Source of the DNA: Gammaproteobacteria bacterium
GTDB taxonomy: Bacteria > Pseudomonadota > Gammaproteobacteria > Ga0077536
Direction of reading: 5' to 3'
DNA length: 64,000 bases
Assembly (NCBI GenBank): GCA_041984235.1
Contig: JBHIYN010000001.1
Span: forward strand, 164,985-228,984
The position numbers and the translations under genes are program-made. Below are positions 12,791 to 18,752 of the stretch, piece by piece. How positions within the stretch are numbered: position 1 is the first letter of the stretch; each line of letters begins with the position of its first letter. A model generated the notes under the pieces. The model ran no database searches and was not told the origin of the DNA. It saw only the letters and a program-made list of their open reading frames with translations.

Positions 12791-13660
12791 ATGAAATTCG
12801 GACAGTACGGCGTGTTCACATTCACCGATGTACTCGATGCGGGGCAGCTCGCGGAGTGCGTGAAGCGGGTCGAAGCCCTGGGCTATTCCACCTTGTGGTA
12901 CCCCGAGGCGTTCCACTACGAAACCTTCGCGGTCGGTGCCTACATGCTCGCACACAGCTCCAAGCTGGTCGTCGCCAGCGGCATCGCCAACATCTACGCA
13001 CGCGATCCGGCCGCTTCGGCCATGGGTCACAACTCGCTCAACGAGCTCTACGACGGCCGCTTCGTGCTCGGGCTCGGCGTGTCGCATGCGCCGCTGGTTT
13101 CCGACGTGCGCGGACACGAGTACAAGCGTCCGCTGGCCACCATGCGCAAGTACCTCGACGACATGGACGGCGCCTGGGAAGCGCTGGGCGGGGCGCCGGC
13201 TGCGAAGCAGATCGCGCTGGCCGCGCTGGGCCCGAAGATGTCGGCCCTCTCGGCCGAGCGCACCCTGGGCGCCTTCCCCTACAACATCACCCCTGACCAG
13301 GTTGCGATGTCGCGCGACGCCATGGGCGCGGAGGGAGCGATCGTCTGCGAGCAGAAGGTCTGTCTGTGCAGCGATGCGAAGCAGGCCCGCGAGGTCGCGC
13401 GCGCGGCGCTCGCCCCGTACATGAACCTGCCGAACTACTACAAGAACTGGTTCCGACTCGGCTTCGAGCAAAGCGACCTCGAAAACGGCGGCAGTGATCG
13501 CCTGATGGACGCGATGGTGCTGTGGGGTGACGCCGCGACGATCAAGGCCGGGCTGGAGCGCTATCTCGCCGCGGGCGCCGACCAGGTCGTGATCCAGCCG
13601 CTGCGGGCGGACGGACAGCCGGGGCCGGACTACGCCGCCCTCGAAGCCCTCGCCCCCTGA
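12791..13660 (+). CDS. LLM-class (luciferase-like) flavin/F420-dependent oxidoreductase
   Basis: 'MKFGQYGVFTF...STLWYPEAFHYETF' is typical of LLM F420-dependent oxidoreductases. The ATG is preceded by 'caggaggacggcg'. Confidence 0.75.
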   Translation: MKFGQYGVFTFTDVLDAGQLAECVKRVEALGYSTLWYPEAFHYETFAVGAYMLAHSSKLVVASGIANIYARDPAASAMGHNSLNELYDGRFVLGLGVSHAPLVSDVRGHEYKRPLATMRKYLDDMDGAWEALGGAPAAKQIALAALGPKMSALSAERTLGAFPYNITPDQVAMSRDAMGAEGAIVCEQKVCLCSDAKQAREVARAALAPYMNLPNYYKNWFRLGFEQSDLENGGSDRLMDAMVLWGDAATIKAGLERYLAAGADQVVIQPLRADGQPGPDYAALEALAP

Positions 13661-13662
13661 CA

Positions 13663-13940
13663 GACCGGCGTGAAGCTACTGCGCTCGCCGGCTGGCGTCC
13701 TGGCGGTGCTCGCCCTCCTCACATAGGACCGACTATGCTGCGGGGGCTGCGCTCCGGCAGGACGCCACCCGGCTTCGCTCGCTACGCTTCACGCCGGCCT
13801 GTCCCGGCCCGAAAAGGCCTGCGCTTGCCGGCTGGCGGCCTGGCGGTGCTCGCCCTCCTCACATAGGAGCGACTATGCTGCGGGGGCTGCGCTCCGGCAG
13901 GACGCCACCCGGCTTCGCTCGCTATGCTTCACGCCGGCCG
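13663..13940. repeat. tandem direct repeat: two copies of a 119-bp unit, 140-bp period
   Basis: Unit 1 is 13681..13799 and unit 2 is 13821..13939, differing at 4 positions. A 12-nt sequence 'ccggcgtgaagc' at 13666..13677 is the exact reverse complement of the unit end 'gcttcacgccgg', which is present in both copies. Each unit carries an AGGAG/AGGAC motif followed by ATG. Confidence 0.85.
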
Positions 13941-13947
13941 GTTTGGC

Positions 13948-14415
13948 CTACCGGTAGCGCGCCGCGGTGATGAACTGTGCGAAGGATTCGCACCACACCA
14001 CCACCGTCGTCCACTGGCCGACGTCGAGGCCCGGCGGAACCGCGACGACGAAGTTCTCGAAGGTCTGCACCGGGCCGACGCGGATCGAGCGGGCCTTGAG
14101 CCGTTCGAATGCCGCACCGTCGTCGACCCACTCGGGGGCGAGGTAGAGCTGGTAGTCGGGGCCGGGGGCGAGCCGGCCCAGCAGGGCGACGCGGTCGTTG
14201 GCGACGAACACCTCGCCTTCGCCCCAATGCAGGAGGTCGCTGCCGGGCAGCCCTCGTTCGAAGCGGCCGCTGAAGCGTGCCTGGTCGCCGAGTGCCTGCA
14301 CCAGGTCGACGGGCGGCGCCGGCGGCGCGGTCAGGATTGGCAGGGCGTAGATGCCGAGCGCGAAGCCCGCGGCGAGCGCGAGCGCGTGGCTGGCGGCGAG
14401 CAGGAGGTAACGCAT
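13948..14415 (-). CDS. DM13-domain protein, secreted (putative electron-transfer domain)
   Basis: It has a signal peptide and DM13-like C-terminal motifs 'GPDYQLYLAPEW' and 'WTTVVVWCESFAQF'. It lies immediately downstream of copA on the same strand. Confidence 0.65.
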   Translation of the reverse strand: MRYLLLAASHALALAAGFALGIYALPILTAPPAPPVDLVQALGDQARFSGRFERGLPGSDLLHWGEGEVFVANDRVALLGRLAPGPDYQLYLAPEWVDDGAAFERLKARSIRVGPVQTFENFVVAVPPGLDVGQWTTVVVWCESFAQFITAARYR

Positions 14416-14464
14416 GACGCGAAGATAGCGCCCGTCGCGGCGCCGGACAATGCGGGCACGGCGT

Positions 14465-16903
14465 CTACAGCGTCAACCGGCGCAGTCGCAGTGCGTTGCC
14501 GATTACCGAGACCGAGCTCAGGCTCATGGCCGCGGCCGCGATCATCGGGCTCAGCACGATGCCGAAGAAGGGGTAGAGCACGCCGGCAGCGACGGGTACC
14601 CCGGCACTGTTGTAAGCGAAGGCGAAGAAGAGGTTCTGGCGGATGTTGGCAATCGTCGCCCGTGACAGGCGCCGCGCGCGCACGATGCCACGCAGGTCGC
14701 CGCGCACCAGGGTCACCGCGGCGCTCTCCATGGCGACATCGGTGCCGGTGCCCATCGCGATGCCGACGTCGGCGCGCGCCAGCGCCGGTGCGTCGTTGAT
14801 GCCGTCGCCGGCCATCGCCACCACCCGGCCTTCCCGCTGCAGCGCGCTGACGCGCTCGGCCTTGTCTTCCGGCAGGACACCGGCGTAGACCTCGTCGATA
14901 CCGAACTCGCGCGCTACCGCCGCGGCCGTGGTCGCATGATCGCCGGTCAGCATGACGATTTGCAGGCCCTCGGCACGCAACGCGGAGACCGCTTCGCGCG
15001 CGCCCTCGCGCAGCGGGTCGGCGACCGCGACCAGTCCCGCGACCTGCCCGTCCTCGGCCACGAACACGACCGTCTCGCCCGCTTCGCGCAGGGCCGCGGC
15101 GCGCGCCTCTAGGGCACCGGCGTCGAGACCGTCCGCGGCCATCAGCGCGGCATTGCCGAGCGCCACCGCGCGCCCTTCGATGCGGCCGCGCACGCCGAGA
15201 CCGGTGGCCGATTCGAACGCTTCGGGTGCGACCGTGGCAATGCCACGCCCGCTGGCGCCGCGCACGATCGCCGCGGCCAGCGGGTGCTCGCTGCCGCGCT
15301 CCAGCGAGGCGGCGATACGCAGCACGTGATCGGCCTCTCCGCCGTTCGCCGCCTCGACCGTGGTCAGGGCCGGCCGCCCCTCGGTCAGGGTGCCGGTCTT
15401 GTCGACCAGCAGGGTGTCGACGCTGCGCAGGACCTCGATCGCCTCGGCATCGCGAAACAGCACGCCGGCCGCCGCGCCCTTGCCGGTCGCGACCATGATC
15501 GACATGGGCGTGGCCAGCCCCAGCGCGCAGGGGCAGGCAATGATGAGTACCGCGACGCTGTTGACCAGTGCATGCGCCATCGCCGGCGGCGGACCGAACA
15601 GCGCCCACACGGCGAACGTCACGATGGCGATGCCGATCACCGTTGGCACGAACCAGCCGGCGACGACGTCGGCGAGACGCTGAATCGGCGCCCGGCTGCG
15701 CTGCGCTTCTGCGACCAGGGTAACGATGCGCGAGAGCAGGGTGTCGGCGCCGACCCGGCGCGCCTCCATGACCAGCCCGCCGCGGCCGTTGACGGTGGCA
15801 CCGGTGACGTCATCGCCGGGCCCTTTCTCGACCGGTACCGCCTCGCCCGTGATCATCGACTCGTCGACCGCACTGGTCCCATCCACGACGACACCGTCGA
15901 CCGGGATCTTCTCGCCCGGCCGCACGCGCAGCCGATCGCCGACCGCCACCGCGTCCAGTGCGACGTCGTGTTCGTCGCCCGCGGCGTCGATGCGGCGCGC
16001 GGTCGCCGGGGCCAGGTCCATCAGCTCGCGAATGGCGGTGCCGGTGTGGGCGCGCGCGCGCAGCTCGAGCACCTGGCCGACCAGGATCAGCGTAACGATG
16101 ACGGCGGCCGATTCGAAGTACACGGGGACGGCGCCATCCGCACCACGGAAGGCGGCCGGGAAGAGCTCCGGCGCCAGGGTGGCCACGGTGCTGTAGCCGA
16201 AAGCCACGCCGACCCCCAGACCGATCAGGGTGAACATGTTCGGGCTGCGATTCACGACCGAGCGCCAGGCACGCTGGTAGAACGGCCAGCCCGCCCACAG
16301 GCACACCGGCACCGCCAGCGCGAGCTCCAGCCAGGGGCGGACACCGTACCCGAGCGCGCTGGAAACCGGGTGTCCCGGCAGCATGTCGAACATCGTCAGC
16401 GCGACCAGCGGCACCGAGAGCAGGGCGGCGAGGACGAGGCGCCGGCTCATGTCGTCGAGCTCGGGATTGGCCTCGTCGACGGTGATCGTGGTCGGCTCCA
16501 GTGCCATGCCGCACAGCGGGCAGTCACCCGCTTCGTCGCGCACGATCTCGGGATGCATGGGGCAGGTCCACTGCGTGCGCCGCGCAGGCTGCGGCAGACC
16601 CTTGACCTCCAGCGCCATGCCGCACCTGGGGCAGTCGCCCGGACCGACCTGCTCGACCTCGGGGTCCATGGGGCAGGTGTAGACGGCGTCGGCCGGGCCG
16701 TCCTGCGCGGCTGCGCGCAGCGCGGGATCGAGGTAGCGTTGCGGGTCGGCCGCGAACTTCTCGCGGCAGCCGTTGCAGCAGAAGTGGTACACGGTGCCGG
16801 CGTGCTCGTGCCGGTGCGTGCTGTCGGTGCTGACCTGCATACCGCAGACCGGATCGCGGAGCTCCTCCGCGCCGGGCTGCAGCGGGCTCGTCGACTGGTT
16901 CAT
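14465..16903 (-). CDS. copA: copper-translocating P1B-type ATPase
   Basis: An N-terminal YHS-type domain ('DPVCGMQV...[12 protein letters not shown]') and two 'TCPM(D/H)PE...GDCP(R/L)CGMALE' metal-binding repeats are present. ATPase hallmarks include the transmembrane CPC motif '[13 protein letters not shown]', 'DKTGTLT' and '[10 protein letters not shown]'. The start is at 'MNQSTSPL' with a GAGGA SD. Confidence 0.9.
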
Positions 16904-16913
16904 GAGTGCGTCC

Positions 16914-17195
16914 TCAGCAGTTGCAGTTCTTGTCGAACACGCGCACGAGCTCGGCAATCTTCTCGGCGCGTTCGCCGGCGTCGCGGCTGTCGAAGGCGTC
17001 GGCCACACAGGTCTCGATGTGCGATGCGAGCAGCAGGCTGCCGGCCTTGCCGAGCGCCGCACGCGCCGCCGCGATCTGCAGCAGGATGTCGACGCAGTAT
17101 CGATCCTCGTCGACCATGCGCTGGATGCCGCCGACCTGTCCGGCTACGCGGCGCAGGCGGGTTTCGATCTGGCGTTTCACGTCGTTGCTGCGCAT
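16914..17195 (-). CDS. csoR: CsoR/RcnR-family metal-sensing transcriptional repressor
   Basis: A 93-aa protein with the DUF156 fold pattern, a conserved 'YCVD' motif and a C-terminal CNC. It is immediately upstream of copA on the same strand. Confidence 0.8.
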
Positions 17196-17215
17196 CGTTC
17201 TCGCTCCCTGTTCTG

Positions 17216-17232
17216 ATACCCCATGGGGGTAT
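17216..17232. promoter_or_regulatory. candidate CsoR operator: inverted repeat ATACCCC-ATG-GGGGTAT
   Basis: A 7-3-7 perfect inverted repeat lies 21 nt upstream of the csoR start codon in the csoR/ribA-paralog divergent region. It matches the GC-rich palindrome style of known CsoR operators. Confidence 0.6.
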
Positions 17233-17378
17233 TATAGCCGAAGCCTGAGGGCCCCTGGCTACACTCGGCGCACGCGATCGCCGACAATGCGGCCTGCATG
17301 TCACCACTGGGCCGTCGGCGTTGCCGGCGCGTACCCGATTCGTCACCCGCCGCAACGCCATCAGCAGGAAATTTCACC

Positions 17379-18173
17379 GTGTTCAGCTACGTCGACGTCT
17401 CCATCCGTGAAAAGCTCGAGGCCGGCGGCCTGCTCGTGACCCTGAACCGGTCCGCCGAGGTCGTTGCCGGCGACGATCGCGAGGCGTTCATCTCGGTGCT
17501 GGGGCCGGTGCCGATCCCGCGCCTGATCGGTGACACCGAGGTCATGCTCGAGTGGTACCCGTTCGTGCGCAGGACCGAGCTCTCGGCCGTGCTGGACGCC
17601 GCCCGCCAGGTCGACGACGGGCACTCCGAGGCTTTCCGGCAGCTCCTGCACAGCTCGATGTCGGTCAACTCGGTCTTCGCCCTGCCCGGTTTCCGGGCTG
17701 CCGACCGGCCCCTGGTGCGCCTGCATTCGTGCTGCCTGACGGGCGACGTCTTCGGCTCGCGGCGCTGCGATTGCGGGCCGCAGCTCGAGGCTGCGTTCGA
17801 GCAGATCTTCGACGTCGGTGCCGGTGCGGTGGTCTACATGAGCGGCCACGAGGGGCGCGGCATCGGCCTGTGGGCGAAAGCGGTGACCTACCTGCTGCAG
17901 GATGCCGGCCACAACACTTACGAAGCGAACACCGCGCTCGGCCTGCCCGAGGACTCGCGCGACTTCAGCGATGCCGCGGTGGTGCTGCGCTACCTGCTCG
18001 CCGGCCGGGGCCTGCGCCTGCTGTCGAACAACCCGGACAAGCGCGCCCAGCTCGAAGCCCACGGCCAGCCGGTGCTGGAGGCGGTGTCACTGGTGGCCGG
18101 CCTGTGTGAGCACAACCTGCGCTACATCCGCGCCAAGCGCAGCAAGGGCCACCTGATCTCCGACGACGTCTGA
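17379..18173 (+). CDS. ribA: GTP cyclohydrolase II (RibA-like paralog)
   Basis: The zinc-binding motif 'CLTGDVFGSRRCDCGPQLE' and 'GHEGRGIGLWAKAVTYLLQDAGHNTYEAN' are present. A GTG start with an AGGAA SD is chosen; track ORF 17298..18173 is an alternative. It is divergent from csoR. Confidence 0.7.
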   Translation: MFSYVDVSIREKLEAGGLLVTLNRSAEVVAGDDREAFISVLGPVPIPRLIGDTEVMLEWYPFVRRTELSAVLDAARQVDDGHSEAFRQLLHSSMSVNSVFALPGFRAADRPLVRLHSCCLTGDVFGSRRCDCGPQLEAAFEQIFDVGAGAVVYMSGHEGRGIGLWAKAVTYLLQDAGHNTYEANTALGLPEDSRDFSDAAVVLRYLLAGRGLRLLSNNPDKRAQLEAHGQPVLEAVSLVAGLCEHNLRYIRAKRSKGHLISDDV

Positions 18174-18293
18174 AGCCCGGCAAAGGGCGCCTGCGGTTCA
18201 GCAGGCGTTCACCTCGCCGGTCGTAGCCTGCGTGTCACGGCCGGCGCCCTGTCGGCGCCCGGCCGGTGAAGTCAAATCGCAAAGGAGACGACC

Positions 18294-18752
18294 ATGACTC
18301 GCAAGCTGGGTAAATCGCTGACGATCGCCGGGGCCGGCTTGTGCCTCGGCCTGTTCGCCGGTGTCGCCGGCGCGCACGAGACCGGGCACCGCGACTGCGA
18401 AAAGCAGGTGCACGAGCATCACCACACCCACTACTACGCGCCGCCGCCCGCGCCGGTAGCCTACGCGCCGGCGCCGCAGGCGCCTGCCTACGGCGGCGGC
18501 TACGCCCCCGGCTATGGCTACGCGCCCGCTCCGGCGCCGGCCTACGGCTACGGTCCGCGCCACGCCCCGGCACCGCGCTACGCGGCGGCCAGCTACAGCC
18601 CGTCACCCAATTTCGGCAATGCCGTGGGTGGTGCGCTGGGCGGCTTTGTCGGCTCCAAGATCGGCAAGGGCTCGGGCAACAGCGCGGCGACTGCCGCAGG
18701 TGCGGTGCTGGGCTACATGCTGGGCGGCCACGTCGGCACCAACTGGCGCTGA
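18294..18752 (+). CDS. secreted His-rich / Pro-Ala-Tyr-repeat protein with C-terminal glycine-zipper domain
   Basis: A strong SD 'aaaggagacgacc' precedes the ATG. The protein has a signal peptide, a His cluster 'HETGHRDCEKQVHEHHHTHYY', low-complexity 'YAPAPAPAYGYG' repeats, and a glycine-zipper (GxxxG run) C-terminus 'GGALGGFVGSKIGKGSGNSAATAAGAVLGYMLGG'. Confidence 0.7.
   Translation: MTRKLGKSLTIAGAGLCLGLFAGVAGAHETGHRDCEKQVHEHHHTHYYAPPPAPVAYAPAPQAPAYGGGYAPGYGYAPAPAPAYGYGPRHAPAPRYAAASYSPSPNFGNAVGGALGGFVGSKIGKGSGNSAATAAGAVLGYMLGGHVGTNWR

Follow-up and report, generated by a model that had tools for sequence, protein, structure and literature searches.

A CsoR/CopA copper-efflux unit with a predicted operator, and an adjoining DM13-domain gene that is probably an unrelated neighbour

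The stretch of DNA considered here, 64,000 nucleotides (nt) of contig JBHIYN010000001.1 from a gammaproteobacterial genome assembly (GCA_041984235.1, positions 164,985 to 228,984) and referred to below as the window, carries between positions 13948 and 17260 three genes in tandem on the minus strand: csoR for a copper-sensing repressor, copA for a copper-exporting ATPase and a gene for a protein with a DM13 domain. An earlier reading of the letters alone, which we call the original prediction, had presented them as one copper operon in which the DM13 gene was the third member. The tandem arrangement is present in the DNA as described, and the principal features are the following.

16914..17195, minus strand: csoR, 93 amino acids, CsoR/RcnR-family Cu(I)-sensing repressor (PF02583)
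14465..16903, minus strand: copA, 812 amino acids, P1B-1 Cu(I)-exporting ATPase with a YHS and two HMBD modules at its N-terminus (Pfam and NCBIfam)
13948..14415, minus strand: DM13 gene, 155 amino acids, predicted N-terminal membrane anchor and periplasmic DM13 beta-sandwich, H63 and C142 invariant
17216..17232, no strand: predicted CsoR operator, perfect inverted repeat ATACCCC-CAT-GGGGTAT, of TAC-N9-GTA form with G/C tracts
17231..17236, minus strand: -10 hexamer TATAAT of the csoR promoter, a perfect match, overlapping the operator's left arm and preceded by a poor -35 region

The product of csoR matches PF02583 with 98.1 bits (cut-off 22.8) and ends in ...KNCNC, which bears out both the family and the C-terminal CNC named in the original prediction. 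Its best NCBIfam match is RicR, with 66.9 bits and thus under the exception-level cut-off of 175. The Cu(I)-binding triad C34/H59/C63 stands in the expected spacing (RYC...SHIETC), the ligand positions being assigned through C36/H61/C65 of Mycobacterium tuberculosis CsoR, which we take to be their counterparts. A DNA-binding RLXR motif is found in helix 1 as R13-L-R-R16, and Q40 is a candidate for the conserved glutamine, the counterpart of Q81 in Streptomyces lividans; both RLXR and this glutamine were defined as CsoR motifs in earlier work (PMC3902906). The nearest CsoR homologues are 67-73% identical, carry the source labels Gammaproteobacteria and Myxococcales/Deltaproteobacteria, and are each encoded directly upstream of copA.

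In the window 10 nt separate csoR from copA, the start codon of which is the ATG at 16903 and not at 16901. The modules described earlier for CopA (a YHS-type domain, two further N-terminal modules, CPC and DKTGT) were all recovered: Pfam places a YHS domain (48.4 bits), HMBD (PF19335) in two stretches (77.9 bits), E1-E2_ATPase and Hydrolase (HAD), and the protein scores 607 bits against TIGR01511, the copper P-type ATPase subfamily, for which the cut-off is 397. The core P-type motifs are TGE352, DKTGT501, SEHP538 and GDGIND699, and the transmembrane metal site is represented by CPC457 in transmembrane helix (TM) 4, YN764 in TM5 and MSLSS793 in TM6. We class CopA as P1B-1 by the signature CPC/YN/MxxSS, which we presume to be that of this group in the P1B classification. 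It is not equivalent to CopA of Escherichia coli, as NF007952 matches residues 188-810 only, with 654.9 bits against a cut-off of 1316. Judged by its sequence, csoR-copA is a canonical unit for Cu(I) efflux under CsoR control. The 80 nearest relatives of CopA taken from metagenome contigs are 55-70% identical, and 60 of them have at least 600 nt of DNA downstream of copA; CsoR is encoded nearby in only four, so that control by CsoR is a minority arrangement for this YHS/HMBD-type clade of CopA.

Tan, Vijgenboom and Worrall described the CsoR operator motif as 5'-TAC-X9-GTA-3' flanking G-tracts, with ATATACCCCTNAGGGGTATAT as the Streptomyces consensus (PMC3902906). The window palindrome, in which TACCCCCATGGGGTA at 17217-17231 forms a TAC-N9-GTA site overlapping TATAAT, fits this motif exactly. 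It is the sole match in the 64-kb window when three mismatches are allowed, and the same scan (three mismatches or fewer) showed no second CsoR box near copA or the DM13 gene. An ATACCCC-N3-GGGGTAT repeat in the style of CsoR operators had already been pointed out, at 21 nt from csoR; the repeat and its style stand, and the distance to the csoR ATG measures 20 nt. The consensus scan did not report a full csoR promoter, the -35 region being weak. Five independent homologous loci with divergent flanks keep this box, or in one case a near-identical variant, ahead of csoR; they include a syntenic relative (L179) and three more distant csoR-copA loci.

L179 (syntenic relative), upstream of csoR: ATACCCC-TAC-GGGGTAT
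L168, upstream of csoR: ATACCCC-TACC-GGGGTAT
L169/L170, upstream of csoR: ATACCCC-ATAC-GGGGTAT
L158, upstream of csoR: TATACCCC-CAT-GGGGTAC

Because the fit to the CsoR motif and the footprinting agree, we regard the predicted CsoR operator at the csoR promoter as established to the limit of what sequence analysis can give. From the motifs and from what is known of the family, tetramers of apo-CsoR would sit on the TAC-N9-GTA palindrome with its G-tracts, and, since the -10 hexamer and the expected start of csoR transcription both overlap that site, bound CsoR would block RNA polymerase. Binding of Cu(I) at Cys34/His59/Cys63 would then release CsoR and allow transcription of csoR-copA, whereupon cytoplasmic Cu(I) would be pumped into the periplasm by CopA. 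It is from the family that we infer this mechanism, in which CsoR represses by occluding the promoter until Cu(I) lifts the block.

Other operons under CsoR control include csoR/copZA of Bacillus subtilis and the cso operon of M. tuberculosis, csoR-Rv0968-ctpV. In Streptomyces lividans, CsoR-controlled copper efflux involves operators at csoR and copZA (PMC3902906). The window locus resembles these systems in its repressor with a Cys-His-Cys Cu(I) triad and RLXR, in the G-tract pseudopalindrome TAC-N9-GTA that overlaps the promoter, and in the regulated P1B-1 Cu(I) ATPase; with the M. tuberculosis operon it further shares csoR as first gene and the autoregulation that would follow. It differs in that its host has a high-GC genome of Gram-negative type, in that no gene for a CopZ chaperone lies at the locus, and in that its CopA, which belongs to the rarely CsoR-linked clade mentioned above, has YHS and two HMBD modules rather than ferredoxin-like HMA domains.

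The third gene of the tandem does encode a DM13 protein: residues 63-154 match PF10517 with 53.1 bits against a cut-off of 25 (Pfam), so that the domain call made earlier is upheld. A first search gave 3487 family proteins at E <= 0.001, and relatives are encoded in at least 590 genome loci of a collection that holds one genome per species, with identities of 52-67% across alpha-, beta- and gammaproteobacteria. In an alignment of 93 homologues, 31 columns are invariant, among them C142, which matches the near-invariant cysteine that we take, from the Pfam description, to be the hallmark of the DM13 family, and seven positions of the N-terminal helix (H10, G17, G21, L25, P26, L28 and P31). The AlphaFold2 model made from this alignment has a predicted local distance difference test score (pLDDT) of 96.5 and a predicted template modelling score (pTM) of 0.88; in it, residues 2-29 form a transmembrane helix, residues 36-44 a short helix and residues 48-154 a beta-sandwich. 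A cleaved signal peptide is unlikely because the N-terminal helix is too conserved, and the most fitting description is that of a protein anchored in the inner membrane, whose domain faces the periplasm. The extracytoplasmic location implied by the earlier description as a secreted protein thus holds, and the word secreted does not. The 155-amino-acid DM13 family is very widespread, highly conserved and uncharacterised; our literature search found no description of its bacterial members, and no paper linking DM13 with copper or with the superoxide dismutase (SOD) fold.

The periplasmic domain holds a single histidine (H63) and a single cysteine (C142), and contains no Met-rich or CxxC motif of the kind typical of periplasmic Cu(I) sites. 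Foldseek comparison of the model with the PDB gave no significant match, and the DM13 profile found no meaningful match among PDB chain sequences. SODs recur among the weak Foldseek hits. The best fold matches of the model are Cu,Zn-SOD, the Cu-only SOD5 and domain 2 of CCS, the copper chaperone for SOD, with a sequence identity of 3-9%. To the Greek-key sandwiches of this type (SodC, Cu-only SOD5, B. subtilis YojM and CCS domain 2) the DM13 domain is thus comparable through weak structural matches, and to SodC also through its periplasmic location, whereas it differs from Cu,Zn-SOD by its very low identity and by lacking the metal site of six histidines and one aspartate. Such a SOD-type site was ruled out for the DM13 protein, H63 being the only histidine of the domain. 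Since there is one histidine and no significant Foldseek match, the likeness to SOD is one of fold and not of family membership. One could nevertheless picture the family as uncharacterised periplasmic metal or redox proteins with a SOD/CCS-like fold, one of which has here come under CsoR control and handles either the Cu(I) that CopA delivers or the damage done by Cu(I) to thiols in the periplasm; we hold this to be very improbable.

The neighbourhoods of DM13 and copper genes bear on whether the two belong together. The 80 best of the at least 590 DM13 loci were taken with 6 kb on each side (homologues 52-63% identical, from the same three proteobacterial classes). In none of the 80 did tblastn with the window proteins find CopA or CsoR within those 6 kb, or a query search a multicopper oxidase, and reciprocally none of the 80 closest CopA relatives had a DM13 gene nearby. 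Clustering of open reading frames across the 80 DM13 loci gave no shared neighbour outside one mobile block. For about 70 DM13 loci (a few mis-assigned loci with the plasmid-type block were left out), the two nearest genes on either side were surveyed with Pfam. No family occurred in more than four loci, and neither copper families nor the DOMON and cytochrome b561 families were among the 25 commonest listed in each census. The recurrence of DM13 genes downstream of copA, proposed earlier as a check, therefore fails in both directions, and the view of the DM13 gene as a functional member of a copper operon is not sustained. Given that none of its relatives in 80 other genomes adjoins copper genes, the DM13 gene looks to us like a chance neighbour of copA.

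Individual loci give the same picture. The four closest DM13 homologues examined occupy unrelated contexts: the closest, P0002, stands alone between an MliC/META gene and a convergent gene for a type-II P-ATPase; P0004 follows an acyl-CoA ligase gene and precedes a Cys_rich_CWC gene; P0005 belongs to an operon with DUF6868 ahead of the DM13 gene and modABC-like transporter genes behind it; and P0068 adjoins unannotated genes. None of the four contexts is syntenic with the window, and with the loci of the two closest homologues (L083, L084) the window shares no synteny apart from the DM13 gene. In loci L174-L177, all from one lineage, the DM13 gene lies between DUF6868 and genes of a modABC-like ATP-binding cassette (ABC) transporter (SBP_bac_11, permease and TOBE-domain ATPase), and overlaps the binding-protein gene by 4 nt. 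From the side of the copper unit, the gene after copA in two loci of close CsoR relatives is one for a multicopper oxidase or a convergent one for a redoxin, and not DM13. In L169, a multicopper oxidase gene follows csoR-copA and overlaps copA by 4 nt.

These results have to be set against the possibility that DM13 was recruited, in this lineage, as an accessory of copper efflux, co-transcribed under CsoR and acting beside CopA in the periplasm, where it would use His63 and Cys142 either to accept or chaperone Cu(I) or for Cu(I)/Cu(II) redox chemistry. Several observations are in keeping with such a recruitment: the gene lies on the same strand 49 nt past copA with no terminator detected between them, the membrane anchor would hold the domain on the periplasmic side, where Cu(I) leaves CopA, both His63 and Cys142 are invariant, the best fold matches are to copper proteins, and in some genomes the family adjoins other metal or oxyanion transporters (modABC-like, CorA). 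However, neither set of 80 loci associates DM13 with copA, nor the DM13 set with csoR or multicopper oxidase genes, and an identity of 52-67% maintained over three proteobacterial classes, whatever the context, argues for one context-independent function. A domain with one histidine, one cysteine and no Met-rich or CxxC motif, a likeness to SOD that stops at the fold, and a candidate promoter of its own within the gap (below) also speak against recruitment, which we judge quite improbable.

The 49-nt gap between copA and the DM13 gene holds one candidate element.

14422..14450, minus strand: candidate promoter TTGTCC-17 nt-TATCTT, predicted, matching consensus at 8 of 12 positions

This site is a post-hoc match to a sigma-70-type consensus. 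Sites of equal quality number 18 on both strands of the window, that is 0.14 per kb per strand, which gives a chance expectation of about 0.007 for the gap. Between the end of its -10 hexamer and the ATG of the DM13 gene lie 6 nt, and no Shine-Dalgarno sequence precedes that ATG; for these two reasons a leaderless DM13 mRNA is conceivable. A consensus scan detected no terminator in the gap, and the fold of the gap RNA is not better than folds of shuffled sequence (z = -0.18); an Rfam scan of 13000-18500 returned nothing real. In the DNA ahead of the DM13 homologues, TANNNT is not enriched at any position in a way that would mark leaderless genes, a Shine-Dalgarno-like 4-mer occurs in 30 of 72, and inspection by eye revealed no conserved motif. 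The DM13 gene probably has a weak promoter of its own, as predicted from this site, and, no terminator being found in the gap, it may also receive read-through from copA. The original prediction had named a separate promoter, not regulated by copper, as the finding that would undo operon membership; a candidate for one is present, predicted only, and read-through from copA could still reach the gene.

Taken to its extreme, this evidence would make the DM13 gene an independent leaderless unit, transcribed from TTGTCC-17-TATCTT only, insulated from copA and not regulated by copper. The promoter-like site does lie at the distance expected for a transcript that starts at the ATG, and the family offers parallels: the gene upstream of the DM13 homologue is on the opposite strand in about one quarter of the 80 loci, and P0002 stands alone between divergent and convergent neighbours. 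Yet without a terminator RNA polymerase leaving copA should read through into the DM13 gene, the match to consensus is weak, and the homologues lack a general leaderless signature, so that full insulation seems to us unlikely.

The reading that we prefer, and consider rather probable, is that of a standard CsoR/CopA unit lying beside an unrelated, lineage-specific DM13 neighbour of housekeeping type, with copper-dependent read-through possible. The DM13 protein would then most likely have a general redox or thiol-related role in the envelope, and not serve a dedicated step of copper efflux. Several points weigh against this reading. The candidate DM13 promoter agrees with consensus at eight positions only, and two genes on one strand, 49 nt apart and with no terminator-like hairpin between them, allow a tricistronic, copper-inducible transcript. 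The three genes are also alike in native base composition (G+C at third codon positions 0.87-0.91 for csoR, copA and the DM13 gene, in a window of 70% G+C) and therefore bear no mark of a recent DM13 insertion, a point that would equally suit recruitment into the copper unit. Lastly, the gene that follows copA is not visible in the syntenic relative, the gene order of which matches the window (ThiS, luciferase-like, abhydrolase, GTP cyclohydrolase II, csoR and copA), as the contigs break inside copA. The CsoR of this relative (P0277) was found on 18 contigs, the longest ending at copA residue 404 and the shorter ones earlier, which suggests a repeat or a strain-variable junction inside copA in the population. 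None of the contigs shown for L171-L173 and L179-L185 (samples ERR3484123-147) passes residue 404. When the C-terminal half of CopA was used as query, the matches were all proteins of 70-75% identity from many lineages, with no recognisable orthologue fragment.

Some hints at what the DM13 family does come from elsewhere. A homologue 56% identical to the window protein belongs to a block found on 324 plasmid records from Klebsiella, Citrobacter, Enterobacter, Pseudomonas, Acinetobacter, Aeromonas and other hosts. There, a tight run of genes on one strand codes for a zinc alcohol dehydrogenase, an HbpS-like protein, DUF1330, a TlpA-family CxxC disulfide reductase, DM13 and a transporter of the major facilitator superfamily (MFS), and is followed by genes for CorA, glutathione S-transferase (GST), MsrA, MsrB and proteins of LysR and OsmC type. 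Within the block the DM13 gene starts 3 nt after the reductase gene and overlaps the MFS transporter gene. In L167 (CP109710.1 5412-21912), and also in L048-L064, a block of this plasmid type is flanked by IS4-family transposases. Scattered chromosomal neighbours of DM13 genes include catalase, methionine sulfoxide reductase (PMSR) and AhpC/Redoxin genes. Because of these redox neighbours, on plasmids and chromosomes alike, and of the invariant Cys142, we lean towards a periplasmic thiol or redox role for the family, a lead that is thin and is at present the most likely direction.

The DM13 domain (PF10517) was described from animal proteins of the Skeletor/Knickkopf type, where it occurs together with DOMON; in contrast, the window protein consists of one DM13 domain that stands alone, Pfam finding neither DOMON nor cytochrome b561 beside it. 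Among bacterial DM13-like proteins, our literature search met with only SaeP of Staphylococcus aureus, a lipoprotein accessory to the SaeRS system (PMC7189620). In both cases the domain is extracytoplasmic and tethered to the membrane, but the window protein is held by a conserved transmembrane helix with an invariant histidine instead of a lipid anchor, and its gene has no SaeQ/SaeRS-like neighbour.

As it stands, a further copper-efflux unit of CsoR and CopA, clean as its operator is, matters little, although predictions of CsoR regulons in this high-GC and poorly sampled lineage could use the operator as a reference. Position alone is no ground for annotating the DM13 gene as a copper gene. 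The DM13 family is perhaps worth more attention, being conserved, uncharacterised and present on many clinical plasmids near a TlpA-like reductase and MsrAB.

Two further features border the three genes. Just past the DM13 stop codon, the convergent intergenic region contains a repeated element.

13679-13802 and 13819-13942, no strand: two tandem 124-nt hairpin elements resembling repetitive extragenic palindromes or miniature inverted-repeat transposable elements (REP/MITE-like)

The two copies are 96% identical, start 140 nt apart and each contain internal inverted repeats of 35 nt; the RNA fold reaches -65.3 kcal/mol (z = -2.76). Neither the rest of the window nor the loci retrieved for comparison hold a further copy, and the pair probably marks the 3' end of the transcription unit.

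On the other side, a GTP cyclohydrolase II-like gene at 17379-18173 on the plus strand (PF00925, 133.6 bits, covering profile positions 38-164 only) is divergent from csoR over an intergenic region of 183 nt. Its pairing with csoR is kept in L179, where an extra abhydrolase gene lies between the two. Two genes from csoR, at 18294-18752 on the plus strand, a secreted protein of 152 amino acids is encoded that has a His-rich stretch (HETGHRDCEKQVHEHHHTHYY), a linker rich in proline, alanine and tyrosine and a C-terminal glycine-zipper domain (PF05433, 28 bits), and that may be a metal-binding protein of the envelope.

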